DNA of 64,000 nt, from UHGV virus genome UHGV-1373362, one strand, 5' to 3'. The position numbers and the translations under genes were made by a program. The notes under the pieces are model-generated. The model did no database searches. It was not told the DNA's origin and saw nothing but the letters and a program-made list of their open reading frames with translations. How positions within the stretch are numbered: position 1 is the first letter of the stretch; each line of letters begins with the position of its first letter. Below are positions 2,925-59,725 of this stretch, one piece after another. This DNA comes from a virus.

Positions 2925-3572
2925 ATGATAAATCTTAACAAAGACCTAGTAGCAGGAGGTCGTATCAACCTTAGTAAGGATGATAACGGCAATGCCCTTA
3001 CTCGTATCTTCTTTGGTGCTAACTGGGGAATGATCAACAAGGGTGGTGGATTTTTGGGATTTGGTAGTAGTAAGGAGAAGGTTGACTTGGATAGTTCAGC
3101 GGTATGTCTGGATGAAAATAAGAGACCCATTGAAACTATATCTTATTACCATTTACGTGCTAACAACAACTCTATCTTCCATTCTGGTGATGATAGAGGT
3201 GGTGATGAATTTGATGATGGATGTGACAATGAAACTATTACGGTAGATTTACCTAATGTAGATTCTCGTGTTCATCATATTGTCTTTATTCTCAATAATT
3301 ATACTCAACAGAAATTTGAAAAGCTCCCTTATATGGGCTTGAGAATTTATACTACTGCTAATGGTAAAATTTCCAGACGTATTAGTGATGAGGGAACTAT
3401 CTTGGCACAAGTTAAGCTAGATCCTAAATCTGATAAGTATATTGGGAAAAAGGGAATTATTCTTGGCGAGGTGTATCGTCATAACGGTGAGTGGAAGTTC
3501 AAAACAATTGATGTTACCGGAACTTGGGGTTCAATTGGAGAAATCACTAGAGAACTTCCTTCCATTATCTAA
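2925..3572 (+). CDS. TerD-family paralog
   Basis: Same domain pattern: GGRINLSKDD, HSGDDRGGDEFDDGCDNETITVDL, GEWKFKTIDV. A second TerD-like copy placed in tandem. Confidence 0.65.
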   Translation: MINLNKDLVAGGRINLSKDDNGNALTRIFFGANWGMINKGGGFLGFGSSKEKVDLDSSAVCLDENKRPIETISYYHLRANNNSIFHSGDDRGGDEFDDGCDNETITVDLPNVDSRVHHIVFILNNYTQQKFEKLPYMGLRIYTTANGKISRRISDEGTILAQVKLDPKSDKYIGKKGIILGEVYRHNGEWKFKTIDVTGTWGSIGEITRELPSII

Positions 3573-8692: not shown

Positions 8693-8957
8693 GCTTACCG
8701 AGTGTTCTAAATTTCTGTATGAAGTATCTTTATACAAGATATGGAAAGACAGATCTGAATCAATTGACAGCCAGTTTTATGCTTCTGAGGTACCACTAAA
8801 GGTCAAAGAAGCTACTTTCGTTAAAATGAAAGATTACACATTGGCTAGGTTTGTAACTTGGCTAGGTGCACCCGCAGATTATTTAAAAAATAATTTTAAA
8901 TTAATTACTGATGAGGGTAATAGACGCAAACGGAAACCCAGAACAAAAACAAACTAG
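8646..8957 (+). CDS. hypothetical protein
   Basis: ORF overlapping both neighbours; start uncertain. Confidence 0.3.
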   Translation: MAKKLTQNVYSYKQYRLTECSKFLYEVSLYKIWKDRSESIDSQFYASEVPLKVKEATFVKMKDYTLARFVTWLGAPADYLKNNFKLITDEGNRRKRKPRTKTN

Positions 8958-9051
8958 TCAAGGTACTAAGACAGTAGGTGCACCATCTACTATGACTTAT
9001 ACCGAGAGGACTATTGATACTACTAGACGTAAGTGCACTTTGTCTAGTGTA

Positions 9052-9570
9052 ATGATTGAAATGTTAGTCAAGCAAATGTCTGCTGAATTGGCTAACCACT
9101 CATTATACAGGACATTTGCTAATTACTTTGATGTAGAGGGGTTGCCTAAGTTAGCAACTTATTGGTTGGGAAGGGCTGCTGAGGAATATCTGCATCATGA
9201 GTGGATCTATAAATATTTAACTACTAATGATGCTTTGTTTCAATATCCACCAGTCCCCCCAATCAGTGTGGACATTACTGATAGGGTAATGCCTTTCGCT
9301 GCAACTGTGGATAGGGAGATTGAAACCACTATGGGCATTAACAAAATTGTGGATCAAGCACAAAAAGAAGGTGATTGGGCTACATTCCAGTGGTTGAATG
9401 GAGAGGATGAGGAAGAAGGTAGACTTGTTAAAGAGCAGGTAGAAGAAGAATCTATCTCTAGAACCATACTAGACATGGCTAGAGAAGAGGGATCTTGGCT
9501 TCGTAAGCAGTCTACTATATTGGCCTTCTATCGTAATCCAGAAAGCCTACAGCCTTCAAGAAAGGCATAG
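9052..9570 (+). CDS. ferritin-like diiron protein
   Basis: MIEMLVKQMSAELANHSLYRTFANYF..G...WLGRAAEEYLHHEWIYKYL parallels bacterial ferritin helix A/B (LNxQxNxELxSSxxY...AxEExxHxxxLxxYL) with an ExxH iron ligand. The track ORF starts at 8911; an internal ATG was chosen to give a ferritin-sized product. Confidence 0.4.
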   Translation: MIEMLVKQMSAELANHSLYRTFANYFDVEGLPKLATYWLGRAAEEYLHHEWIYKYLTTNDALFQYPPVPPISVDITDRVMPFAATVDREIETTMGINKIVDQAQKEGDWATFQWLNGEDEEEGRLVKEQVEEESISRTILDMAREEGSWLRKQSTILAFYRNPESLQPSRKA

Positions 9571-34213: not shown

Positions 34214-34492
34214 ATGACAATCAAGGTAGTAATTAATGATTCTTGTATAAATCTTAAGGATGAACTCTTGCCACTATTAGAAGGTAAGTTTTCTGATATG
34301 GACGTTGAGGTTTACAATGAAGATTTTTATAAAGATAGGAAGAAAGCTATTATGGTAAAGGCATCATGTGGAACAAAATTAGTTCCATTTGTAGCTATTT
34401 ATGATAAAGAGCTTAGAAAAGCGTTTTACTCTGAAGTTGGAGAATGTACTGTTAATAATATTTTAAAGTATCTAAAATGTCTAAAGTTTTAA
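34214..34492 (+). CDS. hypothetical small protein
   Basis: ORF only. Confidence 0.35.
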   Translation: MTIKVVINDSCINLKDELLPLLEGKFSDMDVEVYNEDFYKDRKKAIMVKASCGTKLVPFVAIYDKELRKAFYSEVGECTVNNILKYLKCLKF

Positions 34493-35190
34493 TAGTTCCA
34501 GATGTACACGGTAGAACATTTTGGAAATATGCTAAAAATCATGTAGATGAGTTTGACAAAGTAGTTTTCTTGGGGGATTACTTAGACCCATATCCGCATG
34601 AGCACATATCCTTTGACGATGCAGTTCAGAATTTTAAACAAATTCTAGATTTTAAGAATAAGAATAAGGATAAAGTAGTCCTACTTCTTGGAAATCATGA
34701 TATGCATTACTACAATACAGGATTTATGGACTGCTCTAGAATGAATTATGCTAGAAGGGAGGAAATGTATCACTTGTATACAGGATGGGATTTCTTTAAT
34801 CTGGCCTATATCTATGATAACTATTTATTCTCACATGCAGGAGTATATACAGAATGGCTAGAAGAAAATGATCTGACTCTTGATGATCTTATAGACGACA
34901 ATGCAATTGAAAGATGTATGCCTGCATTATCAGATGTAAGTTATTGGAGAGGTGGATGCTGTGACGCTGGTAGTTGTATATGGTCTGATATTAGAGAATC
35001 CTCTAATAGACATCCTGACACAACCTACTATCAAATAGTTGGGCATACTCAACTAGCAGATGAACCATATCGTACCCCTAAGATTGCATGTTTGGATGTT
35101 CGTAAATGTTTTTTATTAGATACAGAAACTAAAGAGATTACTAGTATTGGTTATAACTCCAACAGTGATGAAAATACAAGTAATAAATAA
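34477..35190 (+). CDS. Ser/Thr-phosphatase-like metallophosphoesterase
   Basis: IVPDVHGR (DxH), VVFLGDYLD (GDxxD), LLGNHD (GNHD/E). Confidence 0.65.
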
Positions 35191-39195: not shown

Positions 39196-40584
39196 ATGCA
39201 ATTAACTCAATCACCAAAGTTTAATAAGAATTATGCAGCAAAGATTATATGGGTCAAGGACTTTGTTAAGCATCCAAACCCTAAGTGCGAAAGATTAAAA
39301 TGTTGTATTGTTGATGGCTATTCAGTAGCAGTTAGTGTGGATACTGAACCTGGAACCTACATTTACTTCCCAGTTGAATGTGCTATCAGTGATACATTCT
39401 TATCAGCTAATAATCTGTTTAGAGATAAGGATCGTAATAAAAACAAGGAGGAGTCTGGATTCTTCGAGGATAACGGTAGAGTTAAAATTATTAAGCTACA
39501 AGGGTATCCCTCGGAAGGATTCATAGCTCCAATTACTTACTTATATAACTGGTTATCTGTTATAGGTAACTCTAATGAGATAATCAGGGCAGAAGTTGGA
39601 ACTGAGTTTGACTCAGTTGGCAATGAGCTTCTGTGTAAGAAGTATATTCCTAAGTTTTCTAAAACTCCTGCTCAAACAGGTGGCAAGGTGACTAAAAAAT
39701 TAAAGAAAGGCATTAAAAAGGTAATAGAGAAGCAGTTTAGATTTCATTATGACACCACTTTGATAAAGAAGTGTCCTAATGTTATTAAACCTGAGTCTCT
39801 ATTATCTATAACTGCCAAAGTGCATGGAACTTCTGGTATATCAGCGTATGTACTATGTACAAGACCCAAGAAGTGGTACGAGAAAGTGTTTGAATTTTTA
39901 ACTCATAGGGAAATAGATAATACTAGATATGACTATCTATGGTCTTCTCGCTCGGTAGTTAAGAATCCATACTATAATGAAACTACTAATGGAGGATTCT
40001 ATGGGGTAGATGTATGGAAGTATGCTGATGCAATAGTACGTCCATACTTAACTAAGGGCATGACTGCTTATTATGAAATTATTGGATTCCTACCCAATGG
40101 TGGTGCAATTCAGAAGTTGGGCGGTAAAGCCTATGATTATGGATTCGTGCCGCCCTGTATTCAGACTGATTATACCCCGTATGAATATGGTAAGAATTTT
40201 GGAGTGCAAATCTACCGTCTAACTTATACTAATTTGGATGGAGTAGTATATGAATTTAGTGCAAGACAAGTACAGCAATGGTGTGAAAGAAATGGGTTAA
40301 CCCCTGTACAACAATATTACTATGGCTATGCCAAGGATTTATATCCAGATTTATCTTTAGATAATCACTGGAACGAAAACTTCATGCAGAGATTAGCTAG
40401 TGATAAAAACTTTTATATGGAGTGTAACTCACCTACATGTATGAATGATGTTCCACATGAAGGGGTTGTTATTAAAATAGAAAATAGTCTATCAGAAGCC
40501 TATAAGCTAAAGTGCATTAAATTCTTGGAAAGGGAATCTAAATCGCTGGATAAAGGTGAGGTTGACATTGAAACTGAATCTTAA
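39196..40584 (+). CDS. RNA ligase (Rnl2-like nucleotidyltransferase)
   Basis: Motif I KVHGTSG (as in T4 Rnl2 KIHGTN), motif IV HEGVVIKIE, motif V KLKCIKF. Confidence 0.6.
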   Translation: MQLTQSPKFNKNYAAKIIWVKDFVKHPNPKCERLKCCIVDGYSVAVSVDTEPGTYIYFPVECAISDTFLSANNLFRDKDRNKNKEESGFFEDNGRVKIIKLQGYPSEGFIAPITYLYNWLSVIGNSNEIIRAEVGTEFDSVGNELLCKKYIPKFSKTPAQTGGKVTKKLKKGIKKVIEKQFRFHYDTTLIKKCPNVIKPESLLSITAKVHGTSGISAYVLCTRPKKWYEKVFEFLTHREIDNTRYDYLWSSRSVVKNPYYNETTNGGFYGVDVWKYADAIVRPYLTKGMTAYYEIIGFLPNGGAIQKLGGKAYDYGFVPPCIQTDYTPYEYGKNFGVQIYRLTYTNLDGVVYEFSARQVQQWCERNGLTPVQQYYYGYAKDLYPDLSLDNHWNENFMQRLASDKNFYMECNSPTCMNDVPHEGVVIKIENSLSEAYKLKCIKFLERESKSLDKGEVDIETES

Positions 40585-41017: not shown

Positions 41018-41331
41018 AAAGGTTTTTAATTCATGTTTCTACATATTGGTGTGGAATGGATGATACATTCAGAGCAGTTGCTGAATCAGAGATGGACTTA
41101 TGGGATTTAGCTGAACAATTAGCTTATGGCAACTTTCAGAGCTATGGCTGTGAGAATGATATAGCTGAGGAAGAAGGTTATGACCCTGATGAAATGACTG
41201 ACGAGGATTGGGATAAATTATGGGAGACAGTAGATGAAACTGCCTACTATGACTTTACTATAGAAGAATGTGAAAATGATGATGAATGGAATGAGTACAG
41301 TGGAGAAATCCTGGGACAAGACGATGTTTAA
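41014..41331 (+). CDS. small acidic protein
   Basis: ATGA overlap; very acidic. Confidence 0.3.
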   Translation: MKRFLIHVSTYWCGMDDTFRAVAESEMDLWDLAEQLAYGNFQSYGCENDIAEEEGYDPDEMTDEDWDKLWETVDETAYYDFTIEECENDDEWNEYSGEILGQDDV

Positions 41332-42079
41332 ATTCTACGAAGTTGGAGGTAAGATAAGAGACAAACTCTTAGGTCTTACTAATAAGGATGTAGACTATGT
41401 AGCTGTGCCTACTGAGGCGTGCTATAGTAGTATTCATCCTCGTGAGTCTCAACCCTCTCCTGCTAGACTAGTATTTCAAGCATTAAAGAGCTATTTAGAA
41501 GAACAGAAGTTTGAAATCTTCTTAGTAACTCCAGATTGTTATACAATCCGAGCTAGATTTCCAGAGGGCTATAAGTATCAAGGAGTAGCTGATTTTGTAA
41601 TGGCTAGAAAGGAAGTAGGATATATTCCAGGTACTAGAATTCCAATAGTTGAGCCAGGAAATCTTTATGATGATTTATCACGTAGAGACTTTACTGTCAA
41701 TGCTTTGGCTAAAGATCCTGATACTGGAGAAATCATTGATTATTTTGGAGGAATAGAAGATTTGAAGTACAGATGTCTTAGAACTCCATTAGATACTGAA
41801 GTAACTCTCAATGATGACCCTTTAAGGATTCTTAGGGCTATTAGGTTTAAAATTACTAAGAGCTTCTCATTCCATTCAGATTTGGATGCTGGTGTTATGT
41901 GTTACCCCTACGAGGAAAGAATGAGTGTAGTATCAGAAGAAAGGATTAGAGAAGAGCTTGTTAAGTGTTTTAAATATTCTACTTACGAGACTCTGCATGT
42001 ATTGGAAACATATGATTCACTTAGAGATTATATCTTTAAAAATACTAATTTATGGCTTAAGCCAACTAGTGAAAAATAG
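41324..42079 (+). CDS. tRNA nucleotidyltransferase (class-II CCA/CC-adding head+neck, minimal form)
   Basis: VGGKIRDKLLG (GGxxRD), KDVDYVAV (DxD), RRDFTVNALA, DPLRILRAIRF. Only ~250 aa, so the body/tail domains are missing. The track start at 41270 was replaced by the ATG at 41324. Confidence 0.8.
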   Translation: MFKFYEVGGKIRDKLLGLTNKDVDYVAVPTEACYSSIHPRESQPSPARLVFQALKSYLEEQKFEIFLVTPDCYTIRARFPEGYKYQGVADFVMARKEVGYIPGTRIPIVEPGNLYDDLSRRDFTVNALAKDPDTGEIIDYFGGIEDLKYRCLRTPLDTEVTLNDDPLRILRAIRFKITKSFSFHSDLDAGVMCYPYEERMSVVSEERIREELVKCFKYSTYETLHVLETYDSLRDYIFKNTNLWLKPTSEK

Positions 42080-42999
42080 TGGAAACTAAGAAACTAATTA
42101 TCTGTAGAGGTATACAAGGCTCAGGTAAGTCTACTTGGGCTAAACAATGGTGTCACGAAGACCCAGAGAATAGAATTAGATTCAATAACGATGACATTCG
42201 TAATATGTTAGGTGACTATTGGGTTCCCAACAGAGAGAAGGTTGTTACTGCAACATATAACACTGTACTAGCTTATAGTATGGAGAAGGGTTATAATATT
42301 GTAGTAGATAACATGAACCTAAATCCAAAGACCTGTGCGGAGTTGGAGAAGATGGTTAAAGATTTTAACGAGAATTATACTTATGATTGGAAGTATGAGG
42401 TTGAGTATAAAGACTTCTTTATTCCAGTTGATGAGTGTATTCGTCGTGATGCAATGAGACCCAATCCCATTGGTGAGAAGGTTATCAAAGCAACTTGGAG
42501 AAGATATAGAGACTTTATCATCCAAGAGGACATTAATAATATGCTAAAGAGAGCACCTAAACACGTAGACGGAGGACGTCCTGTCATACTAGTTGATATG
42601 GATGCTACTTTATGCCTAAATACGTCAGGTAGACCTTACTTTGGAGAGGGTGCAGCTGAGGGTATGTTAAATGATATAGCCATAGAAGGAACCTGCGCTC
42701 TTGTTAGGCGTATGTATGAGAAGTGCAAAGTCTTTATCATTACTGGTAGAGAGGGTACTTCAGAGATTATAGAAGCTACTAAGGAATGGTTAGCTAGACA
42801 TGATATTGCTGTGGATGGATTATTCTTCAGACCAATTAAGGACTACAGTCCTGGAGCTGATTGTAAGAAGAAAATCTATAAGGATAATATTGAAGGTAAG
42901 TATAATGTTCAATTCGTTCTTGAAGACAATTACAAATGTGTCAAGATGTGGAGAGAGCAAGGCTTACTATGTCTTCAGCCTAATGAAGGGAAATTCTGA
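42079..42999 (+). CDS. polynucleotide 5'-kinase/3'-phosphatase (T4 Pnk-like)
   Basis: N-terminal P-loop kinase CRGIQGSGKST; C-terminal HAD phosphatase motif ILVDMDATLC (DxDxT). GTG start overlapping the upstream TAG. Confidence 0.75.
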   Translation: METKKLIICRGIQGSGKSTWAKQWCHEDPENRIRFNNDDIRNMLGDYWVPNREKVVTATYNTVLAYSMEKGYNIVVDNMNLNPKTCAELEKMVKDFNENYTYDWKYEVEYKDFFIPVDECIRRDAMRPNPIGEKVIKATWRRYRDFIIQEDINNMLKRAPKHVDGGRPVILVDMDATLCLNTSGRPYFGEGAAEGMLNDIAIEGTCALVRRMYEKCKVFIITGREGTSEIIEATKEWLARHDIAVDGLFFRPIKDYSPGADCKKKIYKDNIEGKYNVQFVLEDNYKCVKMWREQGLLCLQPNEGKF

Positions 43000-47451: not shown

Positions 47452-47673
47452 ATGGGTAAGTATATAGACTTAAGTTCAGTAATTGATGTAGAACCTGAAG
47501 TATGTGAGGTACTTCCTCTTATTGAAGATGATGACCTTCAATATGAATTTTGGCAGAGATTAGATGAAGGATTCTTTAAAGACTTTCTTTGTAATCACTG
47601 TAATGAGAATGACCTCAGTATAATGAAGGAAATTCTCGACGAGATAATAGAAGATTCTAAGGATGCAGACTGA
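47452..47673 (+). CDS. small acidic protein
   Basis: ATG at 47452 just after the polymerase stop. Confidence 0.35.
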   Translation: MGKYIDLSSVIDVEPEVCEVLPLIEDDDLQYEFWQRLDEGFFKDFLCNHCNENDLSIMKEILDEIIEDSKDAD

Positions 47674-48190
47674 GATTGAGAGAAAGTTCCTAACCACTAG
47701 CAGCTTGTTTAAGGAGCAGGCTGTTAGGGTTATGAATATACAGCAAGGATACATAGGGACTACAAGTAAAGGAGAAGCTAGAGTATCTATAAGAGACGAG
47801 AAAGCATGGATTATAGTCAAATCTAATGAAAGACTGTCAAGGTTGGAGTATGAAATTCCTATTCCTAAGAAGGATGCAGAAGAATTACTTAAAAGAACCT
47901 GTGGTAGGATTATTCATAAAACTCGTTATATCATTCCAGCAACATCTGGTATGTTGAAATGGGAAGTAGACGAGTTTCATGGAGAGGATGAAGGCTTAAT
48001 AATTGCTGAGATAGAGTTACCATCAGAGGATATGCCATTTGAAAAACCTCAATGGCTTGGTAAAGAAGTAACACAAGATACTACTTATTATAACTCTACA
48101 CTCTCTAAAACATCTTGGAAAGCTATTCAGAAGTCATATGCTGAAGCTAAAGCTTGGGATGATTGGAGGGATTCATTAGTAAAAGGATGA
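47663..48190 (+). CDS. CYTH-domain protein (triphosphate tunnel metalloenzyme)
   Basis: N-terminal EIERKFL signature of CYTH/CyaB-thiamine triphosphatase domains, with acidic residues along the beta-strands. About 175 aa. Confidence 0.55.
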   Translation: MQTEIERKFLTTSSLFKEQAVRVMNIQQGYIGTTSKGEARVSIRDEKAWIIVKSNERLSRLEYEIPIPKKDAEELLKRTCGRIIHKTRYIIPATSGMLKWEVDEFHGEDEGLIIAEIELPSEDMPFEKPQWLGKEVTQDTTYYNSTLSKTSWKAIQKSYAEAKAWDDWRDSLVKG

Positions 48191-50457: not shown

Positions 50458-51102
50458 ATGAAAGAACAGAAGTTTGAATTTAGTGCTAAGAACACTTTCT
50501 TTACCTCAGACCTTCATTTTGGCCATACTAACATAATCAGATTATGCAATAGGCCATTTAAAGATGTTGAGGAGATGAATAAAGTGCTAATTAATAATTG
50601 GAATAGAATAGTCCCTGAAAATGGGACTATTTTTATTTTAGGAGATTTTGCATTTGGAGGTAGTGAATTATGGAACACTGCTTTAAACCAGTTAAATGGC
50701 AATAAGTACTTAATAATTGGAAACCATGACGTTAAAAACCTAAGACAAGGCTATATGGATAAATTTGTGGATGTACTACCGCAAATGCAAATTCAGATAG
50801 AGAAGAGAAGTGTCTATTTGAATCATTATCCATTCCTGTGCTATGGTGGTTCATATCGTAACGATGCCGATGCTGTGTGGCAGTTATTTGGCCATGTTCA
50901 TTCTGGTCCGACTAGTTCTGGATTGGATTGTGATAGATTGGTTCATCTATTCCCTTATCAGTATGATGTAGGTGTAGATAACAACAACTATACTCCAATC
51001 TCTTGGGCAGAGGTAAAGGAGAAGATTCAGCACCAAATAGATGAAGGAGTGGAGAAATCAGTCAAGGAACATACAATTCCTGACGAAATATACAAACTAT
51101 AA
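50458..51102 (+). CDS. calcineurin-like metallophosphoesterase
   Basis: FTSDLHFGH (DxH), ILGDFAF (GDxx), IGNHD. Confidence 0.65.
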   Translation: MKEQKFEFSAKNTFFTSDLHFGHTNIIRLCNRPFKDVEEMNKVLINNWNRIVPENGTIFILGDFAFGGSELWNTALNQLNGNKYLIIGNHDVKNLRQGYMDKFVDVLPQMQIQIEKRSVYLNHYPFLCYGGSYRNDADAVWQLFGHVHSGPTSSGLDCDRLVHLFPYQYDVGVDNNNYTPISWAEVKEKIQHQIDEGVEKSVKEHTIPDEIYKL

Positions 51103-51320
51103 TGACTAAATTGACTTTAGAAATCGACGGAACTATCTGTTCTATGGAGATACCTTATAATGATGTAAGTGCTACTGAACTAATTAAGGGATTTGGCTCT
51201 CTAATGATTGGTCAGACATTTCTTGCTTGCACTGTTAAAGAGGCTCTAGAAGAGGTAGCCGAAGATTATGAAGACGAACTAAGAGTAGGTTATGAATCCC
51301 AACACACTGAGGAAGATTAA
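51102..51320 (+). CDS. small protein
   Basis: TAATG overlap. Confidence 0.3.
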   Translation: MTKLTLEIDGTICSMEIPYNDVSATELIKGFGSLMIGQTFLACTVKEALEEVAEDYEDELRVGYESQHTEED

Positions 51321-51615
51321 AAGGTTAGAAGCTGGTGAATCATTTATCACTAGTGAGCCTGGAAACTCTATGCTTCCGTTATATAAGAGTAATGAGAAGC
51401 ATAGGGTTACTCCAATGAAATGGGAAGATTGCAAAGTGGGCGATGTAGTATTCTGTAAGGTTAGAGGTTCATGTGTAACTCACAAAGTCTATGCAGTAGA
51501 TAGTGAGAAAGGTTGTCTAATAGGTAATAATAAAGGACACATGAATGGATGGACTAAGAATGTATATGGCAAAGCCCACAAAATTGACCAATCGTTAAAA
51601 ACTAAGAAGCCTTGA
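51292..51615 (+). CDS. S24/S26-like peptidase-fold protein
   Basis: GNSMLPLY (compare GDSMxP of LexA/UmuD/signal peptidase) followed by VGDVVF. Confidence 0.4.
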   Translation: MNPNTLRKIKRLEAGESFITSEPGNSMLPLYKSNEKHRVTPMKWEDCKVGDVVFCKVRGSCVTHKVYAVDSEKGCLIGNNKGHMNGWTKNVYGKAHKIDQSLKTKKP

Positions 51616-52304
51616 GAATTTGTGTAACGTCTGATTTACATGGCATTCTTCCTAAAATAGAAGAGCCATGTAATGTAGTATTGATATGTGGAGATATTAT
51701 GCCATTATGTATGCAGAGAAACATTCCTCAGAGTGAGAAATGGTTAAAGACTACATTTGCTGAATGGGTTAATGATCTTCCGTGTGAGTCTGTTATTATG
51801 GTAGGAGGCAATCATGATTTTGCTTTAGCTAATATGTACAGGCAGCCTCTAAAAATTAGCTCAATCTTAACACAGCCAACTAATGGTAAGCTGAAGCTAT
51901 TAGATAATGAGGAAACACACATTACTGATGAAAATGGAAAAGATTACACAATATGGGGAACCCCATATTGCAAAATCTTTGGTAATTGGGCTTATATGTA
52001 TGAGCCTGAAACTCTGATTAAAGCATATGAATCTATGCCAGAGAAGTGTGATATTGTTATATCTCATGATGCTCCTAAGTTGTGTGGTCTTGGTGTTATT
52101 CATCAAAGATTTGACCAAGAGGATGCTGGCAATCCCTGGTTGGCTGATGAGATACTTCGCAAACATCCTAAATATACATTCTGTGGACATATCCATAGTG
52201 GGGAGCATAATCTACAGATCCTTGATGATATGAAAATGGCTAATGTGTCTTTAGTAGATGAAAGCTACGTAAAATATTTTAATCCTTTATATTTGGATGT
52301 CTAA
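51612..52304 (+). CDS. calcineurin-like metallophosphoesterase
   Basis: VTSDLHG, LICGDI, GGNHD; TTG start overlapping the upstream TGA. Confidence 0.6.
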   Translation: MRICVTSDLHGILPKIEEPCNVVLICGDIMPLCMQRNIPQSEKWLKTTFAEWVNDLPCESVIMVGGNHDFALANMYRQPLKISSILTQPTNGKLKLLDNEETHITDENGKDYTIWGTPYCKIFGNWAYMYEPETLIKAYESMPEKCDIVISHDAPKLCGLGVIHQRFDQEDAGNPWLADEILRKHPKYTFCGHIHSGEHNLQILDDMKMANVSLVDESYVKYFNPLYLDV

Positions 52305-52503
52305 AATTACAATTAAGCTGTCAGTTACTCCAATGCTATTGGTTCTTCTGCTACTAATACTAAAACTAATAGGATTGGGGATTAGTTGGCTATGGGTATT
52401 TTGTCCAATATGGATTCCATTGGTATTTATTGCAATTTCTGGAATAACGGTTATATTTATACTAATTATAGCATTATGGATGGGAAAATCGTTTTGGTTA
52501 TAG
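52297..52503 (+). CDS. small membrane protein
   Basis: Three hydrophobic helices in 68 aa. Confidence 0.3.
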   Translation: MSKITIKLSVTPMLLVLLLLILKLIGLGISWLWVFCPIWIPLVFIAISGITVIFILIIALWMGKSFWL

Positions 52504-53057
52504 TGGATTTTCAGTATGACTTCTGTCTATCTGGGAGTCCACTTTATGTAAAAGGGTCTGATAAGGCTCTTTTAAATGTTGCTGACTTAATCTCAAGTGA
52601 TAGAGTTAGTAGAGTGATATTTACTGCTGATTGGCATCCGTCTAAACACATTTCTTTTAAAAAGAATGGTGGTCAATGGGATGAACATTGTGTGCAGTTC
52701 TCTAAAGGTGCGGCTATACATGACTTATTATTGTATGGTTGTATTAGTGCTGGAATACCTTATAAGGTAATTACCAAGGGTACATCTCACATTTCTGAGG
52801 AATATGGAGTAAAGGTTGCTCCGGCTAGTGCTAAAGCTCAGTACCATACTATCTATAGTTTATCAGTAGGAGTTGATGTTCAGCCAGATGAGCAAATAGT
52901 AATCTGTGGCTTAGCAGGAGATTACTGTGTGTTGGAAACTTTGAAAAACCTGGCTCCCATTAACCCTATGATATTTCTCAATGGTGTAGCCTCTCTTGAC
53001 GGAGGAATTAAACTTAATGAATATATAGAAAATAGTGGGACTAAGGTATGGTTATAG
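52476..53057 (+). CDS. isochorismatase-family hydrolase (nicotinamidase PncA-like)
   Basis: KIVLVIVDFQYDF (catalytic Asp region) and a C-terminal ICGLAGDYCV (nucleophile Cys). The track start at 52386 was replaced by the ATG at 52476. Confidence 0.55.
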   Translation: MDGKIVLVIVDFQYDFCLSGSPLYVKGSDKALLNVADLISSDRVSRVIFTADWHPSKHISFKKNGGQWDEHCVQFSKGAAIHDLLLYGCISAGIPYKVITKGTSHISEEYGVKVAPASAKAQYHTIYSLSVGVDVQPDEQIVICGLAGDYCVLETLKNLAPINPMIFLNGVASLDGGIKLNEYIENSGTKVWL

Positions 53058-53281
53058 GAATTATTGCATTACTAATTTACCTATTAACAACAATAATAGG
53101 TATTCTTATGGGCAAGTATCTGTCTAACATGGTTGACAAGAATGACAAGCAGGAGGTACACTCATTTATTCACGTTTGCCTTATTCCTATAATTAATATA
53201 CTTGTTGTTATTGTAGGTTTATTTGAACTAGTAAATGGGATATTACATAAAATAGCAAATTATATAGAAAAATGGTGGTAA
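53048..53281 (+). CDS. small membrane protein
   Basis: Two TM helices. Confidence 0.3.
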   Translation: MVIGIIALLIYLLTTIIGILMGKYLSNMVDKNDKQEVHSFIHVCLIPIINILVVIVGLFELVNGILHKIANYIEKWW

Positions 53282-54471
53282 AATCAATTCTTGATACGGA
53301 CTTGTATAAGTTTACAACTTCGTATGCTTACATGAAGTTATTTCCCAATGCGGAGGGGACATTTTCATTTATTGATAGGGATAATACTGAATATGATGAG
53401 GAATTCATACTTATGTTGAACATGGAATTGCTAAATCTATATTCTCTGTCTCTATCCATAGAGGAGAAGGATTATATGATTGCGAACTGTAGATTTATAC
53501 CTGCTGTATATTGGGAATGGCTTAGTTCTTTCAAGTTTGACCCTTCACGTGTTGTTATAAGCCTTGATGAAAACAAGCATCTTAATATAGATGTTACGGA
53601 CAGTCTCTATAAGGTTACTTTATATGAAGTACCAATATTAGCTATAGTATCAGAAGTACGCAATGCCTGGCTAAGCAACACTCCTGATTCCGACTGGAAG
53701 CAGAGATTGTACGATAAAGTACAAATGTCCAATCAACATGCTCTACCGTTTTCAGAATTTGGAACTAGGAGGAGATTTTCTTATGAAGTACAGGAATCTG
53801 TATGTATCTATCTAAAGAGATACGCTACATTTTGCACTGGTACTTCCAATTGTTATCTAGCTATGAAATGTAGTATGAAAATGATGGGAACTCACCCACA
53901 TGAATGGTTTATGTTTCATGGTGCACAGTATGGCTACAAACAGGCTAATTATATGGCATTAGAGAACTGGGTTAACGTTTATGACGGGGATTTAGGTATT
54001 GCTTTAACTGATACCTATACATCGGAGGTATTCTTAAAAAACCTATCACGTAAACAGGCCAAGCTGTTTGATGGTGTGAGGCATGATAGTGGAGATCCCT
54101 ATAAGTTTATAAATAGAGTAATAACTAGGTATAAAGAACTAGGGGTTGATCCTGCTACTAAGACTATAATCTTCAGTAATGCCCTTACATTCCCCGATGC
54201 TTTGGAGATTATGCAATATTGTGGTGGTAGAATTAGGTGTGCGTTTGGTATAGGTACTAATCTTACCAATGATACCGGTAACAAGCCTTCTAATATTGTA
54301 ATGAAATTGGTTAGGTGCCGAATGACTAAAGCACAACCTTGGTTTAACTGCGTTAAGCTATCTGATGATTTAGGTAAGCATACTGGGCAGAAAAAAGAAG
54401 TAGAACACTGTATAAATGAATTGAGACTATGCAATGGGAGTATGACAAAATTACAGTTAAGTATGAAATGA
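53272..54471 (+). CDS. pncB: nicotinate phosphoribosyltransferase
   Basis: N-terminal SILDTDLYKFT... is characteristic of PncB/NAPRTase; about 400 aa. Confidence 0.7.
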   Translation: MVVKSILDTDLYKFTTSYAYMKLFPNAEGTFSFIDRDNTEYDEEFILMLNMELLNLYSLSLSIEEKDYMIANCRFIPAVYWEWLSSFKFDPSRVVISLDENKHLNIDVTDSLYKVTLYEVPILAIVSEVRNAWLSNTPDSDWKQRLYDKVQMSNQHALPFSEFGTRRRFSYEVQESVCIYLKRYATFCTGTSNCYLAMKCSMKMMGTHPHEWFMFHGAQYGYKQANYMALENWVNVYDGDLGIALTDTYTSEVFLKNLSRKQAKLFDGVRHDSGDPYKFINRVITRYKELGVDPATKTIIFSNALTFPDALEIMQYCGGRIRCAFGIGTNLTNDTGNKPSNIVMKLVRCRMTKAQPWFNCVKLSDDLGKHTGQKKEVEHCINELRLCNGSMTKLQLSMK

Positions 54472-54574
54472 ACATCTCTGAGTTAAACAAGATGGGAAAC
54501 TCAGGATGGGAGTTAGTGGCTGTTACATATCATGCAAGTGGTTGCTATACTTATTATTTTAAAAGGTTGATAAA

Positions 54575-55522
54575 ATGAATGAGTTAAATTATGAGAGGGT
54601 GTTTAATGTTTTAGTTAATGAAACATCTAGTTACATTGTTAAGAATCATCTTAAAGCTATGATTCTTGGGATCAGCGGTGGTATAGATTCAACAGTAGTT
54701 GCTGCTATTTGCCATGAAGTAAGTAAACAGACTGGTATTCCTTTAATTGGAAGAAGTCTTCCTATTAAGAATAGAAACGATGAGTTTGAAGTATCTAAGC
54801 TAGTGGGAGAAGCATTCTGTAATGACTTTGCAGTATGTCCGATGACAAGGTTATATCATGCAGCTCTCAAAGAAGTGTACCAAGTAGAAAACATGGAAAG
54901 GCATGAGTCTACCTATACTATTGAAGAACTAGAGCAAGCTAATGGACAGACTAAGATAGCTAATGGTAACATTCAGGCTAGGTTAAGAATGATGTTCCTG
55001 TATAATCTTGCTTCAATCCATAAAGGTTTAGTAATGTCTACGGACAATCAGACTGAATATCAGCTTGGATTCTGGACTATTCATGGTGATGTAGGTGATT
55101 TCGACCCAATTCAGGACTTATGGAAGACAGAGGTTTACGGATTAGCTAATTACCTACTGGGCATGTATTATAATTTGTACTGCGAGGCTACTCTTGATAA
55201 GTGTAAAGAAGCTAGAGAATGGGAACAGTGGTGGAAAGGCAAGTACGAGGCCATGAAGGCATCTATAGCTCTTACTCCTACAGATGGTCTTGGCATCAGT
55301 AATAGTGACCTGGATCAAATTGGGGCTAAAAGTTATAACGATGTTGACAGAGTGTTGCAAACTTTAGTCTGTCCTGCTTCTCCTGAGAATGACAGAGTGC
55401 AAGATGCTTTAGCTGTTGAAATAGGTCCAGAGACTATAGATAAGATTATCAAAAGACATAGAAACTCTGGGTTTAAGCGTGAAAAGTCTCCTATCTATAT
55501 ATCTAGGGAGCTTTACAAATAA
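54575..55522 (+). CDS. nadE: NH3-dependent NAD+ synthetase
   Basis: PP-loop LGISGGIDSTVVAAI (SGGxDS). Confidence 0.8.
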   Translation: MNELNYERVFNVLVNETSSYIVKNHLKAMILGISGGIDSTVVAAICHEVSKQTGIPLIGRSLPIKNRNDEFEVSKLVGEAFCNDFAVCPMTRLYHAALKEVYQVENMERHESTYTIEELEQANGQTKIANGNIQARLRMMFLYNLASIHKGLVMSTDNQTEYQLGFWTIHGDVGDFDPIQDLWKTEVYGLANYLLGMYYNLYCEATLDKCKEAREWEQWWKGKYEAMKASIALTPTDGLGISNSDLDQIGAKSYNDVDRVLQTLVCPASPENDRVQDALAVEIGPETIDKIIKRHRNSGFKREKSPIYISRELYK

Positions 55523-55536
55523 CTTATTATTCTAGT

Positions 55537-55794
55537 ATGAAACTATATTATTTATTTTTATTGATAATGGCTCTTTTAATGAGCTGTTCTGGGCCTAGTG
55601 TTGACAGTGTGTCTAGTAATACTCTCACTGCAGGGTATACTACTTACAAGGGGCAGGTTAGAGAGCTTATCATAGATGGACATACCTATATCAAGGTAAA
55701 TAGAGGTGTAGCCCATTCAGGTTCATGTGGGAAGTGCAAACAAGAGCTTTACAGTATCATCCGTAAAGCTATAAAAGATGAGTTAGGGAAATGA
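55537..55794 (+). CDS. small lipoprotein
   Basis: Signal peptide with lipobox-like LLMSC. Confidence 0.35.
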   Translation: MKLYYLFLLIMALLMSCSGPSVDSVSSNTLTAGYTTYKGQVRELIIDGHTYIKVNRGVAHSGSCGKCKQELYSIIRKAIKDELGK

Positions 55795-56384
55795 CAGGTT
55801 TATTCTTTGGATCATTTGATCCAATTCATATCGGGCATGTCAACATCATCACATCAGCATTAAATTCTGGAATAGTTGATGATGTTGCAGTTATTCCAGC
55901 ATTTAAGAGTGTATGGAAAGATACCGAAACCAGCTTCTTAGTTAGATGTGCTATGTGTACGCAGGCTATTAAATCGATTCCTCATACATACGTTAGTACC
56001 ATCGAGCAGAGTTTAGCTGAAGGTAAGCCACTCCCTACTTATAAGACCCTTGAATGGTATGAAGGAAATTATGACTTCTACATTATAACTACTCCAGAAA
56101 CATATCTAGAAATTCCTAGATGGCAGAAGGGCGATGAGATATTGGAGAAGTATAAGTTCTTAATAGTAACTTCCAGTCATTTTGATTTTATGTTGGGAAG
56201 TGAAAAGCTTGAAGAGTTAGAGGAAAGTATAATTAGTAGTGGTAAGAATAAATTAATATATTCTCCAAGTATTAATGTATGTTCAACCTCTATAAGACAA
56301 CGTGTAAAGAATGGTAACATTGTAATTCCATTCGTGCAGGATGATGTTTTAAATATAATTAAGCGAGGAAATTTATATAAATGA
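55791..56384 (+). CDS. nadD: nicotinate/nicotinamide mononucleotide adenylyltransferase
   Basis: FGSFDPIHIGH matches the (H/T)xGH nucleotidyltransferase motif in NadD form (GGTFDPIHxGH). Confidence 0.75.
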   Translation: MTGLFFGSFDPIHIGHVNIITSALNSGIVDDVAVIPAFKSVWKDTETSFLVRCAMCTQAIKSIPHTYVSTIEQSLAEGKPLPTYKTLEWYEGNYDFYIITTPETYLEIPRWQKGDEILEKYKFLIVTSSHFDFMLGSEKLEELEESIISSGKNKLIYSPSINVCSTSIRQRVKNGNIVIPFVQDDVLNIIKRGNLYK

Positions 56385-56863
56385 AAGTATATATTTCATG
56401 TCCTTATTCATTTAAGGAAGGGGTAAAAGAAACAGTAAAACACCTTAAAAAGCTAGGACTTACTGATATATCTAATAACACTAGAGGAGAAGATTATGAT
56501 GCTTCTAAACTCCAGGAATCTGACTTTGTTATATTCGTGCTAGAGGATTTTAAGTGGAGTCAGCCTTTAAATACTATGAGTAAGGGAATCTTATCTGAAT
56601 TTGTGTGGTGTCTAAACCACAGAAAGCCTTATTATATCTGCTATAGGTCAGCTGCCGGATTAGGGATATATGGTGCACAAATAGATGAGACAGCTGTATT
56701 TAGAGGAGGTGAAAGCATATTATTAAGTGGAGTTGCAAGTACCAAGGATTCCCTGCCTCTTGTAGCACAAACATGTTCAAACATTTACTATATGGGAGGA
56801 AACCTATATATAAAGTCAGGTGAAGATAAATCGAGTATTGAAACAGAGTCAAATTTTTATTGA
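56381..56863 (+). CDS. nucleoside 2-deoxyribosyltransferase-like protein
   Basis: MKVYISCPYSF resembles the NDT/Rcl N-terminus. Weak call. Confidence 0.3.
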   Translation: MKVYISCPYSFKEGVKETVKHLKKLGLTDISNNTRGEDYDASKLQESDFVIFVLEDFKWSQPLNTMSKGILSEFVWCLNHRKPYYICYRSAAGLGIYGAQIDETAVFRGGESILLSGVASTKDSLPLVAQTCSNIYYMGGNLYIKSGEDKSSIETESNFY

Positions 56864-56864
56864 T

Positions 56865-57407
56865 ATGAAGAATTTTCCATTGTTGGATGAAAACGGCAAG
56901 GAATGGTGGATAAGCCGTTCTATTGCAGTAACTGGATGTATATTTACATTTCTGAATGGTAAGTGGTGTGTACTAGCCAATAAGAGGGGTGAAGGTACAC
57001 CTGATTTTCAGGGAATGTGGAATATGCCATGTGGTTACTTAGACTTTAATGAAACTACAGCAGAAGCTGTAATCAGAGAAGTCTATGAAGAGACTGGAGT
57101 TAGACTGAATCCTAACTTCCTACACTTCTGGAAATTCAATGACTCTCCTGCCCAAAATAGACAGAATGTATCCTTTAGATACTATGCTCTAATTGATGCA
57201 CAGCCAGGTAGTATCAGTGTTGGTACTGGTAACGATAGAGGCGGGGAAGAGGATGAAGTGGAAGCTATCGGGTGGATTCCATTGGACTCTATTGATAAAT
57301 ATCAATGGGCGTTTGACCATGATAAAATTATCAGAGAGTTTGCTGAATGGATGCACTTAGAGGATGGAGATTTGGATATGGAGGATATTGACTTAGACCC
57401 AGTATGA
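56865..57407 (+). CDS. Nudix hydrolase
   Basis: Nudix box GYLDFNETTAEAVIREVYEETGV (GX5EX7REUXEEXGU). The ATG at 56865 follows the upstream stop. Confidence 0.7.
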   Translation: MKNFPLLDENGKEWWISRSIAVTGCIFTFLNGKWCVLANKRGEGTPDFQGMWNMPCGYLDFNETTAEAVIREVYEETGVRLNPNFLHFWKFNDSPAQNRQNVSFRYYALIDAQPGSISVGTGNDRGGEEDEVEAIGWIPLDSIDKYQWAFDHDKIIREFAEWMHLEDGDLDMEDIDLDPV

Positions 57408-57781
57408 CATACTTTATAAGTGGACATAGGGACTTAACATGGGAGGAGTTTGCCAAATGGTATGCTCCTGCCATTAGTAGAACACTTAGTACAGATAATG
57501 CAGCCCAGTTCGTTGTAGGTGATTGTGAAGGCGCCGATAAAATGGCTCAGGATTATCTACTAGCCTGTGGTGTTTCATTTAGAAATATCACTGTATATCA
57601 TATGTTTAAAGCTCCTAGATATGCAGCTCTTAGAAGTGTGCCCACTCAAGGAGGCTTTACATCTGATATAGAAAGGGACAAAGCTATGACTGAGCACTCT
57701 GACTATGATATTGCCTTTATTCGTAAAGGTAAAGAATCCTCTGGTACTGCTCAAAATATCCTAAGAAGATGGACGAAGTAA
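57404..57781 (+). CDS. SLOG/YpsA-like Rossmann-fold protein
   Basis: VVGDCEGADKMAQDYLL resembles the GxxGxD..A motif of SLOG (DprA/LOG/YpsA) nucleotide-binding domains. Weak call. Confidence 0.3.
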   Translation: MTYFISGHRDLTWEEFAKWYAPAISRTLSTDNAAQFVVGDCEGADKMAQDYLLACGVSFRNITVYHMFKAPRYAALRSVPTQGGFTSDIERDKAMTEHSDYDIAFIRKGKESSGTAQNILRRWTK

Positions 57782-57933
57782 AGAAGCCTACTGAGAGGGA
57801 AAGATTTGAGAGTCTTAGGCTGCACTTCACTAGTCTATTCCTACAGCATCCTAAAATGCTTGAAGTCATGTCCTATAAGGATATAGTATTGAAAGCTAAG
57901 GAATTTACTAAAGAATATCTAAAGCATGAATAA
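57769..57933 (+). CDS. small protein (54 aa)
   Basis: Not in the track because it is under 60 aa. MDEVKKPTERERFESLRLHF...; fills the 57781-57926 gap. Confidence 0.25.
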   Translation: MDEVKKPTERERFESLRLHFTSLFLQHPKMLEVMSYKDIVLKAKEFTKEYLKHE

Positions 57934-58417
57934 GTTTATATTTTTAGATATAGATGGGGTTATGAATAGTAATCTCTTCTACTCTGAAAGAACTCAGGAC
58001 AAAAGATATAATGATTGGATTAAAGAGCACCCTGAGCGTATAGCTTGGAGTGCTTGTAATATTGACCCAAGAGCAGTAGAAAGGCTAAATAGACTTACTG
58101 ATGCTACTGGAGCTAAGATTGTTGTATCTTCTACCTGGAGAAGTGATAGTAATTTGCAGGAAGTATTTAACCTTGTTGGAATTAAAGAACCTATACATGA
58201 CATAACTCCTTATATGAGGAGTAGGCATAGAGGTTCCGAAATCCAAGAATGGTTAGATAAGCAAACTGAACCTTATCGGTATGTAATCTTTGACGATGAT
58301 ACTGATATGTTGGACTCTCAATTACTTTATTTCATTCAATCTGATTGGCTGAAATGGGGTTTAAGTGATGAAGATGTCGAACAAGCAATACATATTCTAA
58401 ATGATACAGCCACTTAG
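57926..58417 (+). CDS. HAD-superfamily phosphatase-like protein
   Basis: IFLDIDGVMN motif I (DxDGV) and a later VIFDDDTDM; resembles HAD domains found with RNA-repair proteins. Confidence 0.45.
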   Translation: MNKFIFLDIDGVMNSNLFYSERTQDKRYNDWIKEHPERIAWSACNIDPRAVERLNRLTDATGAKIVVSSTWRSDSNLQEVFNLVGIKEPIHDITPYMRSRHRGSEIQEWLDKQTEPYRYVIFDDDTDMLDSQLLYFIQSDWLKWGLSDEDVEQAIHILNDTAT

Positions 58418-58548
58418 ACATATCTATAATGACCCAACCCTAGACAGAGAGTTGCTTCTTCGTAAGTTAGCCTCTCTAAGGATTAAGGGTGTAATTAGTA
58501 TTGAAGAATACGAGTATTTAAAACATTTAATAAGAAAGGAGAACGAAA

Positions 58549-59025
58549 ATGCTCAGAGAGCAAATGGATGCACTTATTAAGCAATCAATGCTTGATAAGA
58601 ATATAAAGAGAACTGATGTATTAAGGGCTATTAAGAATGAGTTCTTAGTGTTTCAAACAGCTAAAAATGCTAAGCCTTTAGATGATGCAGCTGAGTTTAC
58701 TATTCTTCGTAAGATGGTTAAGCAAAGACTTGATAGTAGAGACCAATATATTGCAGCAGGAAGGAAAGACCTAGCCGATAATGAATCTAAAGAGATTCTA
58801 GTGCTGGAATCTTTCCTTCCGCGAGAAGCCACGATTGAGGACATCAATAAGGCAATCTATGAAATCTGTACTGAGAGGGGATGGTACATACCGCAGAGTG
58901 AAGACACAATCTGCCCGGAAATCCCGAAAAAGTCTATGGGAGAAACTATTAAGATGGTCAAGGGAAAGCTTGATAATGTAGATGGCAAATTACTTGCCGA
59001 TACTATTAAATCATTTCTGGTATGA
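58549..59025 (+). CDS. GatB/YqeY-domain protein
   Basis: MLREQMDALIKQSMLDKNIKRTDVLRAIKNEF parallels the YqeY N-terminus; about 158 aa. Confidence 0.5.
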   Translation: MLREQMDALIKQSMLDKNIKRTDVLRAIKNEFLVFQTAKNAKPLDDAAEFTILRKMVKQRLDSRDQYIAAGRKDLADNESKEILVLESFLPREATIEDINKAIYEICTERGWYIPQSEDTICPEIPKKSMGETIKMVKGKLDNVDGKLLADTIKSFLV

Positions 59026-59410: not shown

Positions 59411-59725
59411 ATGAAAATCGAGAGTAAAGTAAAAAGGTTTCAGCAAGGTGGGGCTGCTCCTGCACCTCAAGAGGCTCCTGAAGGTGGAGCACCAGCTGGT
59501 GGAGCACCAGCTGAAGGGGGGGCACCTCAAGAGGGGGGACAAAATCCTATGGATCAGATTCTACAAGTAGCAGAGCAAGCTGTTCAAACACAAAATTGTG
59601 AGGCAGCTCTAGCGGTATGTCAAGCATTGGTACAAGTTGCAGGTGGTGGTGCTGCTCCAGCAGAAGCCCCTCAAGAGGAACCAACCTTTGCAAGAAACGG
59701 GGCTAAACTGATAAGAGTAAGATAA
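59411..59725 (+). CDS. Ala/Gly/Pro-rich low-complexity small protein
   Basis: Locally GC-rich. Repeats GGAPAGGAPAEGGAPQEGG. Contains KRFQQGG, similar to KFQYGG/QFLQAG in the downstream giant ORF. Own promoter and terminator. Confidence 0.45.
   Translation: MKIESKVKRFQQGGAAPAPQEAPEGGAPAGGAPAEGGAPQEGGQNPMDQILQVAEQAVQTQNCEAALAVCQALVQVAGGGAAPAEAPQEEPTFARNGAKLIRVR

Follow-up and report, generated by a model that had tools for sequence, protein, structure and literature searches.

Can a phage carry the complete enzymatic route from nicotinamide to nicotinamide adenine dinucleotide (NAD+), and if so, what would the route be for? The question is raised by a gene cluster in the UHGV virus genome UHGV-1373362, within the 64,000-nucleotide (nt) stretch analyzed here (the window), which encodes a nicotinamidase-like protein (PncA), a nicotinate phosphoribosyltransferase (PncB), an NAD synthetase (NadE), a nicotinate mononucleotide (NaMN) adenylyltransferase (NadD) and a Nudix hydrolase. 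Judged from the sequence, the cluster is probably a self-contained deamidating NAD+ salvage pathway, captured from a Bacteroidales host lineage and keeping NAD+ available during infection. A role in counter-defence against NAD-depleting immunity is plausible.

The four salvage enzymes named by the first-pass annotation are present and intact, as seen from family profiles, matches to PDB sequences and invariant catalytic residues, and the motifs that it quoted are all in the sequence (SILDTDLYKFT at residues 5-15 of PncB, GSFDPIHIGH at residues 7-16 of NadD, and SGGIDS, the PP-loop of NadE). Conservation was counted over 43-62 diverged phage homologues per enzyme, with overall identities of 32-81%. 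PncB passes the cut-offs of two family models at full length (TIGR01514, 412.3 bits vs 269.55; NF003704, 433.7 vs 379) and has both the N-terminal and the catalytic domain (PF17767 and PF04095). Its motif GTHPHEW (GTHxHEW) is invariant in 43/43 phage homologues; the His of GTxxHEW is the conserved His of the ATP-coupled (phospho-histidine) mechanism. A NadV- or Namat-like phosphoribosyltransferase was rejected for this gene because the PncB equivalog cut-offs are passed and the protein is 64-69% identical to host PncB. NadE, of 315 amino acids (aa), consists of a single NAD_synthase domain (PF02540, 3.4e-36, 125 bits; TIGR00552, 120.2 bits vs a cut-off of 63.65), and no glutaminase (CN-hydrolase) domain was found in it with Pfam or NCBIfam, which makes it a short enzyme of the NH3-dependent type. 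Its PP-loop is conserved in 59-62 of the 62 homologues, and its matches among PDB sequences are NAD synthetases only, mostly NH3-dependent. NadD matches TIGR00482 (3.9e-26). All 12 of its named PDB matches are NaMN adenylyltransferases, the thirteenth (3h05) being an uncharacterised protein, and its motif GxFDPxHxGH is invariant in 49/49 homologues, with S-T-x-x-R (STSIR) kept in 48/49.

PncA matches Pfam Isochorismatase (1.5e-9; 38.6 bits vs a cut-off of 27), and its sole NCBIfam match is nicotinamidase/pyrazinamidase (1e-15). All seven of its PDB matches are nicotinamidases (best 3r2j, 3e-18), and the triad Asp11/Lys101/Cys151 aligns with that of solved nicotinamidases. These three residues are invariant in the 53-54 phage homologues (of 54) that cover the respective column, and the nicotinamidase-specific metal site Asp52/His54/His71 (DWHP...H ... 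HCV) is invariant in 54/54.

The Nudix hydrolase proposed downstream is likewise borne out (PF00293, 4.4e-16), with a complete, perfect Nudix box (GX5EX7REUXEEXGU; GYLDFNETTAEAVIREVYEETGV) whose key residues are invariant in 44/44 homologues. A single-sequence search of PDB sequences did not resolve its subfamily. The profile search was more informative and would place it with the ADP-ribose-binding NrtR/ADP-ribose pyrophosphatase clade, with 3gz8 (1.4e-11), 3gz5 (4.3e-11) and 2fml as best matches in a span reaching to 5e-9, and with NudJ, NUDT15 and others close behind. The profile match extends over the entire domain and takes in the C-terminal AFDH motif. The entries 3gz5, 3gz6 and 3gz8 are Shewanella NrtR, whose Nudix domain binds ADP-ribose; the NrtR Nudix domain descended from ADP-ribose pyrophosphatases tied to NAD metabolism. 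The phage Nudix is matched best by NrtR and NadM-Nudix domains (3gz5, 3gz8, 2fml, 2qjt), with which it shares a genomic link to NAD metabolism. In contrast to NrtR, it has retained a full catalytic box (REx2EE) and lacks a DNA-binding domain, from which an enzyme rather than a regulator is predicted. ADP-ribose pyrophosphatases are marked by a conserved Pro about 15 residues past the Nudix box, and an invariant Pro stands near that position, at +16, in the phage family. With moderate confidence, the protein is predicted to be an ADP-ribose pyrophosphatase. That the catalytic residues are invariant argues strongly for five active enzymes kept by purifying selection; the pathway assignment appears solid, while the activities and substrate preferences of every enzyme are read from sequence.

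The layout of the cluster is given in Table 1. The gene order is PncA, PncB, NadE, NadD and so differs from the order of the pathway. The genes for the four steps had been described as consecutive on the + strand; all are on that strand, where + strand ORFs (open reading frames) are tightly packed from 52.4 to 57.8 kb, but they are not strictly consecutive, for ORFs of 77, 85 and 160 aa lie between them and three small ORFs and the 160-aa ORF in all are interspersed among the enzyme genes. Stop and start codons overlap by 4 nt at the junctions of the 85-aa ORF with NadD, of NadD with the 160-aa ORF and of Nudix with the 125-aa ORF, and 1 nt separates the 160-aa ORF from Nudix. Alternative upstream starts exist for PncA at 52410 and 52386. 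The Nudix ORF spans 56820-57407, and independent gene callers agree on 56865 as its likely start. No convincing terminator was found inside the cluster, the few terminator-like hairpins all being within genes. A sigma-70 promoter scan of the window gave nothing above chance, with a tool that does not cover Bacteroidales promoters. An Rfam scan of the whole window had no match above the gathering thresholds and hence gives no sign of a NAD riboswitch. The three small interleaved ORFs are poorly conserved (7-27 of 80 loci, in the survey described below), yet are called in independent assemblies. Among them, the 77-aa ORF is called as a gene in such assemblies; for the 85-aa ORF gene callers favour a 71-aa version, and no significant family match was obtained in Pfam, NCBIfam or PHROG-type searches.

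Table 1. Genes of the NAD cluster in the window, with the number of IMG/VR loci (of 80) that hold a homologue and the top identity to any of these loci
Feature	Position	Strand	Annotation or predicted role	Loci (of 80)	Top identity
Calcineurin-like metallophosphoesterase	51612-52304	+	Pfam Metallophos 2.5e-10; directly 5' of PncA	72	
Small hydrophobic ORF, 68 aa	52297-52503		From ORF list; interleaved with NAD enzymes		
PncA-like nicotinamidase	52476-53057	+	Predicted nicotinamide -> nicotinate + NH3	78	81%
Hydrophobic membrane ORF, 77 aa	53048-53281	+	Between PncA and PncB; weak phrog_31444 match	7	
PncB, nicotinate phosphoribosyltransferase	53272-54471	+	Predicted nicotinate + PRPP (+ ATP) -> NaMN		73%
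NadE, NH3-dependent NAD synthetase	54575-55522	+	Predicted NaAD + NH3 + ATP -> NAD+	78	76%
85-aa ORF with lipoprotein-like signal (LMSC)	55537-55794	+	Stop overlaps NadD start by 4 nt	27	
NadD, NaMN adenylyltransferase	55791-56384	+	Predicted NaMN + ATP -> NaAD	72	54%
160-aa protein	56381-56863	+	TIR / nucleoside 2-deoxyribosyltransferase-like N-terminal domain (predicted); invariant Glu73	51	47%
Nudix hydrolase, NrtR/ADP-ribose pyrophosphatase type	56865-57407	+	Predicted ADP-ribose -> AMP + ribose-5-phosphate	70	
Standalone SLOG-fold protein, 125 aa	57404-57781	+	Predicted binding/processing of nucleotide or ADP-ribose-derived ligand	66	
PRPP, phosphoribosyl pyrophosphate; NaAD, nicotinate adenine dinucleotide.

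The cluster is conserved in many phages. With PncB as query, 80 IMG/VR loci were recovered at 54-73% identity, the majority of them on contigs of 95-190 kb, and the counts in Table 1 come from tblastn of the window proteins against these loci. Wherever the loci carry the cluster genes, the gene order is the same. PncA, PncB and NadE are kept together in five loci from contigs of 158-435 kb. In the largest of these, a 435-kb jumbo phage (L071), Pfam-confirmed PncA, NadE and NadD lie with PncB within 9 kb, the rest of the synteny is absent, unrelated genes are interspersed between the NAD genes, and neither a Nudix nor a SLOG gene was found in the cluster. Divergence is uneven along the locus. 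The flanks (51102-52304 and 56865-59025) are 98-100% identical to some of the IMG/VR loci, and two loci (L003 and L020) have a Nudix 99% and a 125-aa ORF 100% identical to those of the window. The core from PncA to the 160-aa ORF (52476-56863) is divergent, with the top identities given in Table 1, and the window's core allele also occurs in several other assemblies. This mosaic pattern suggests either that recombination replaced a cassette or that the core has diverged unusually quickly. A crude neighbour-joining tree divides PncB into five pure phage groups instead of one clade and sets the PncB of the window by itself, apart from the main phage clade; claims of repeated transfer would ask too much of such a tree.

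The pathway comes from the host lineage. Chromosomal PncB of Phocaeicola, Bacteroides and Parabacteroides shares 64-69% identity with the phage protein, a resemblance that marks Bacteroidales both as hosts and as the source of the gene. The arrangement is another matter. In 79 of 80 bacterial PncB loci, no PncA, NadE or NadD was present in the fetched flanks (up to 6 kb each side), so the compact cluster looks like a phage arrangement and not a copied host operon. The sole exception, a 5.1-kb contig (L111, JAFZDT010000057.1) binned into an Erysipelotrichaceae metagenome-assembled genome, has PncA-PncB-NadE-NadD in the phage arrangement and is probably a mis-binned phage fragment. The chromosomal Bacteroidales enzymes belong to the same families as those of the phage, in which the four genes form one compact cluster; set against chromosomal salvage, the phage NadE is the short, single-domain NH3-type. 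An identical PncB protein is found on 14 independently assembled contigs, the longest of 185-187 kb, which puts the genome at about 186 kb and hence slightly short of the 'jumbo' threshold. When the cluster was compared by megablast with 50,697 phage records, only two partial matches were obtained, both to unannotated 'Bacteriophage sp.' records; these closest phage-database records are from human faecal samples.

The phage-borne setting that had been assumed for these genes is evident throughout the window, which is a single + strand block of replication and nucleotide-metabolism genes. The former comprise a DnaB-like helicase, primase, PolA, a Dda-like helicase and an ATP-dependent DNA ligase; the latter comprise NrdD with an activase-like protein (NrdD/NrdG), dUTPase, ThyX and UDG. 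Supply of NAD+ to an NAD-dependent DNA ligase of the phage was rejected for the window, the ligase being of the ATP-dependent type. No NAD+-consuming enzyme was seen among the window ORFs scanned (64 kb of the ~186-kb genome). Given this and the type of the ligase, the idea that the cluster feeds a NAD+ consumer of the phage itself is unsupported within the window.

The proposed scheme can be set out as follows. PncA would deamidate nicotinamide to nicotinate, PncB would combine nicotinate with PRPP to give NaMN, NadD would adenylylate NaMN to NaAD, and the NH3-dependent NadE would amidate NaAD to NAD+, a step in which the ammonia released by PncA could be re-used. By annotation, four phage genes would thus lead from nicotinamide to NAD+, with PRPP supplied by the host. 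ADP-ribose, which NADases release alongside nicotinamide, would be cleaved by the Nudix enzyme to AMP and ribose-5-phosphate, and host PRPP synthetase would turn the latter into PRPP for PncB; this link from Nudix to PRPP is one that we infer. Both products of NAD+ cleavage would be recycled by the combined steps. The most likely purpose would be to maintain the phage's supply of NAD+, also under attack by host NADase effectors (SIR2, TIR and similar) that deplete it. Upkeep of NAD+ is favoured over the feeding of a phage NAD+ consumer by the entry at nicotinamide, the ADP-ribose type of the Nudix and the lack of a NAD+ consumer among the scanned ORFs, and the two roles can coexist.

Several observations weigh against this reading. 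At the level of single enzymes, PncA scores 58.1 bits against the NCBIfam equivalog NF008623, below its cut-off of 174, and NadD scores 92.3 bits against TIGR00482, below the equivalog cut-off of 112.45; the preference of NadD for NaMN or nicotinamide mononucleotide (NMN), and of NadE for NaAD or NaMN, is not legible in sequence. At the level of the pathway, the window yielded no PRPP synthetase, and PRPP would have to come from the host enzyme. The hosts already encode PncB, which means that the pathway duplicates a host capacity and adds none, and its cost of three ATP plus PRPP per NAD+ is above that of the NadV route. As regards the accessory genes, the synteny of Nudix is limited to one phage clade and could reflect shared ancestry, and in three jumbo-phage contigs the SLOG homologue lies away from PncA, PncB and NadE. 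Finally, the window takes in a third of the genome (64 kb of ~186 kb), and NAD+ consumers may lie elsewhere in it; the counter-defence role is itself inferred from gene content.

How the cluster relates to known systems bears on its novelty. Among 174 annotated 'NAD-jumbo phages', Li et al. 2024 (Microbiome, PMC11662467) described pncB-nadD-nadE clusters, labelled 'Preiss handler', in gut jumbo phages (Kuafu-type) that infect Bacteroidota, mentioned phage pncA in passing, and proposed both counter-defence against NAD+ depletion and autonomous NAD+ synthesis. These clusters resemble the present one in that PncB, NadD and NadE are grouped in gut phages of Bacteroidota with the same proposed function, and jumbo contigs with PncA-PncB-NadE were also recovered in the present analysis. 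The differences lie in the carriers and in the gene content. The genomes of Li et al. exceed 200 kb and are mostly from livestock, whereas the present phage has about 186 kb and its nearest database records are human faecal; PncA received only passing mention there, whereas here it lies beside PncB in 78/80 loci; and the Nudix, TIR/NDT-like (NDT, nucleoside 2-deoxyribosyltransferase) and SLOG neighbours of the present cluster were not described.

Other phage routes to NAD+ have been demonstrated experimentally to overcome NAD-depleting defence (10.1101/2024.02.11.579819; PMC13464706). Of these NAD+ reconstitution pathways (NARP), NARP1 consists of Adps and Namat and NARP2 of NadV and an NMN adenylyltransferase (NMNAT) (Osterman et al., 10.1101/2024.02.11.579819, a text in which nicotinate, PncA and NadE are unmentioned), and NARP3, experimentally shown as a third pathway, consists of PnuC and NadR (PMC13464706). 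NARP2 (NadV/NAMPT plus NMN adenylyltransferase, e.g. NadV-NatV of Vibrio phage KVP40) is similar to the present cluster in starting from nicotinamide and PRPP and in rebuilding NAD+ with phage enzymes. It does so, however, in two amidated steps via NMN rather than in four deamidated steps via nicotinate, NaMN and NaAD, and with NadV in place of a phosphoribosyltransferase that is PncB (TIGR01514 above cut-off) and an adenylyltransferase of NadD type. In the KVP40 type a Nudix domain is fused to the adenylyltransferase (PMC7824862), whereas the related Nudix is here a separate neighbouring gene. NARP1 and NARP3 share with the cluster the proposed purpose of restoring NAD+ during infection; NARP1 pyrophosphorylates ADP-ribose, whereas hydrolysis by Nudix is predicted here. 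No NARP signature gene (PRPS-like Adps, NadV-like/Namat, PnuC, NadR) was found in the cluster or among the other scanned ORFs of the window, where a canonical PncB is the one phosphoribosyltransferase. NARP2 has been shown by experiment to counter defence; for the present route, as for the clusters of Li et al., such a role is a bioinformatic prediction.

The suggestion of the first-pass annotation that a full Preiss-Handler set would be a distinct third route is thereby weakened, the pncB-nadD-nadE clusters and the counter-defence idea being in Li et al. 2024 (PMC11662467) and NARP3 being already PnuC plus NadR (PMC13464706). The central idea has been published as a bioinformatic hypothesis, and the counter-defence reading is reasonable and not original. 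No paper was found that experimentally tests the deamidated route or describes SLOG-fold phage sponges. What is added here is the near-obligatory adjacency of PncA and PncB, an ADP-ribose-type Nudix and the TIR/NDT-like and SLOG genes packed in with it, and a lineage just under the jumbo size cut-off that recurs in many assemblies.

Among other explanations, the cluster may be a general auxiliary metabolic module that raises or stabilises the NAD(P) pool for replication with no specific link to immunity, by providing redox cofactors to ThyX and nucleotide synthesis, by offsetting host shut-off, or by supplying NAD+-dependent enzymes encoded elsewhere in the genome. This is a serious alternative, if on balance an unlikely one. 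It draws on the position of the cluster inside a module with ThyX, NrdD/NrdG, dUTPase and UDG, on the many NAD+-consuming enzymes reported in NAD-jumbo phages (Li et al. 2024, PMC11662467), on a related contig in which an NMNAT-like gene stands beside the NAD+-dependent RNA 2'-phosphotransferase Tpt1, and on an RNA-repair set in the window (RNA ligase, PNKP and a CCA-adding-like enzyme). Against it stand the lack of a NAD+ consumer among the scanned window ORFs, the ATP-dependent ligase, and the combination of PncA acting on nicotinamide, a product of NAD+ cleavage, with an ADP-ribose-type Nudix, which fits recycling better than net synthesis. The general module and counter-defence are not mutually exclusive.

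A second explanation turns on the two unannotated proteins that flank Nudix. Neither the 160-aa nor the 125-aa protein gave a match in sequence and profile searches of PDB sequences, and structure prediction was needed. In the 160-aa protein, residues 1-100 are confidently modelled, the invariant Glu73 is on the helix that follows strand 3, and two sequence homologues have a precomputed TIR_2 match; the N-terminal domain is predicted to be TIR/NDT-like in fold. In a viral fold library the top match, a weak one, was to a phage nucleoside 2-deoxyribosyltransferase. The 125-aa protein is modelled as a SLOG fold of Rossmann-like type, in which a Gly-rich loop follows strand 2. Five homologues of these two proteins (P0027, P0028, P0031, P0053 and P0152) are short, yet have precomputed Pfam matches to NAD_synthase, NAPRTase_N, CTP_transf_like or Isochorismatase; they are probably frameshifted or chimeric calls across the neighbouring NAD genes and not true fusions.

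It is conceivable, though unlikely, that this downstream trio of TIR/NDT-like protein, Nudix and SLOG protein is the key part of the locus, serving to bind or break down immune signals derived from ADP-ribose, for example the cyclic ADP-ribose (cADPR) isomers of Thoeris, with the salvage enzymes turning the breakdown products back into NAD+. The ADP-ribose-binding type of the Nudix and the packing of the three genes against each other and against NadD (4-nt overlaps, 1-nt gap) speak for it, as do the precedent of RyDEP, in which phage enzymes destroy cADPR signals and feed NAD+ synthesis (PMC13232231), and the prediction, from comparative genomics, that SLOG and Nudix proteins of phages take part in conflicts centred on NAD (PMC7824862). 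It is opposed by the silence of the literature searched on phage SLOG sponges and by the SLOG homologues of three jumbo-phage contigs (L165 2112-2573; L166 4134-4712; L167 4227-5828), which do not adjoin NAD genes and weaken the case for SLOG as a member of the NAD pathway. In two of these contigs the homologue is 3-6 kb from NDT-family genes (PF05014, PF15891), whereas Tpt1 (PF01885) and an NMNAT-like gene are close to it in the third; the recurring pairing hints at a possible SLOG-NDT partnership in some other nucleotide transaction. A broader form, in which all seven genes make up one integrated anti-NADase and anti-Thoeris module, with the TIR/NDT-like and SLOG proteins capturing or cleaving ADP-ribose-derived signals, Nudix feeding PRPP and PncA, PncB, NadD and NadE rebuilding NAD+, is speculative and rather improbable. 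If true, a fourth pathway of NAD+ reconstitution, deamidating and equipped to destroy the signals as well, would be widespread among near-jumbo Bacteroidales phages of the human gut.

The two remaining explanations concern single enzymes of the pathway. NadE might amidate NaMN to NMN, which the adenylyltransferase would convert to NAD+, as in Francisella, with the same end product by way of other intermediates. The gene order PncB-NadE-NadD would fit that order of reactions, and 3fiu, the Francisella NadE that serves as NMN synthetase, is among the top three PDB matches of the phage NadE. Gene order is, however, weak evidence of reaction order, the other top NadE matches are ordinary NaAD-amidating enzymes, and the 12/12 named relatives of the adenylyltransferase are of the NaMN-preferring NadD family and not NadM or NadR, all of which makes the Francisella order quite improbable. 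It is very improbable that the isochorismatase-family protein is not a nicotinamidase, leaving a plain Preiss-Handler pathway from nicotinate to which NADase-released nicotinamide is not directly usable: the equivalog score (58 bits, far under 174) and the many other hydrolases of the superfamily would allow it, but the uniformly nicotinamidase PDB matches (7/7), the metal site and Asp-Lys-Cys triad invariant in all homologues covering the columns, and the position next to PncB in 78/80 loci argue otherwise.

Other features of the window may be mentioned. The metallophosphoesterase just 5' of PncA is a possible accessory gene of uncertain membership, and the same placement of its homologue in 72 of the 80 loci could reflect common descent; it could act on cyclic or ADP-ribose-type nucleotides. 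It is one of three calcineurin-like metallophosphoesterases in the window, the others being at 34477-35190 and 50458-51102. The RNA-repair set (39196-40584, 41270-42079, 42079-42999, 47663-48190 and 57926-58417) looks complete and comprises an RNA ligase, a CCA-adding/poly(A) polymerase head domain, PNKP (kinase plus HAD phosphatase), a CYTH protein and HAD_SAK_2, a 'Swiss Army Knife RNA repair' phosphatase that lies just 3' of the NAD cluster; no Tpt1 was seen in the window. Near the window start, two adjacent TerD-domain proteins (2307-2921 and 2925-3572; 2.3e-57 and 5e-25) are accompanied by an SPFH/Band-7 protein (1477-2280) and a ferritin-like protein (8911-9570); Ter-type stress/nucleotide systems are unusual in phages and may be related to the Nudix and NAD theme. 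In a near-identical strain (L162, 3246-3968), a LAGLIDADG homing endonuclease follows a shortened PolA (623 vs 640 aa), which indicates a mobile insertion in the polymerase region. Past a low-complexity 104-aa ORF (59411-59725), an ORF of 1527 aa with no Pfam match begins at about 59790 and runs beyond the window end; it is missing from the ORF list because of this truncation and can be seen in full in another assembly (L161, 16520-21103).

NAD+ depletion is a major theme of bacterial immunity, and of the three phage routes for rebuilding NAD+ that have been shown experimentally none is deamidating. The value of the present cluster lies in a defined, testable set of genes with accessory genes rather than in a new concept, and the placement of two conserved unannotated proteins, TIR/NDT-like and SLOG, hints at the handling of ADP-ribose-derived molecules. 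The cluster is carried by a phage lineage that is frequent in human-gut samples and has Bacteroidales as hosts, bacteria in which the biology of phage defence is poorly explored. If the proposed pathway is true, the classical four-enzyme route from nicotinamide through nicotinate to NAD+ would also be used by viruses.

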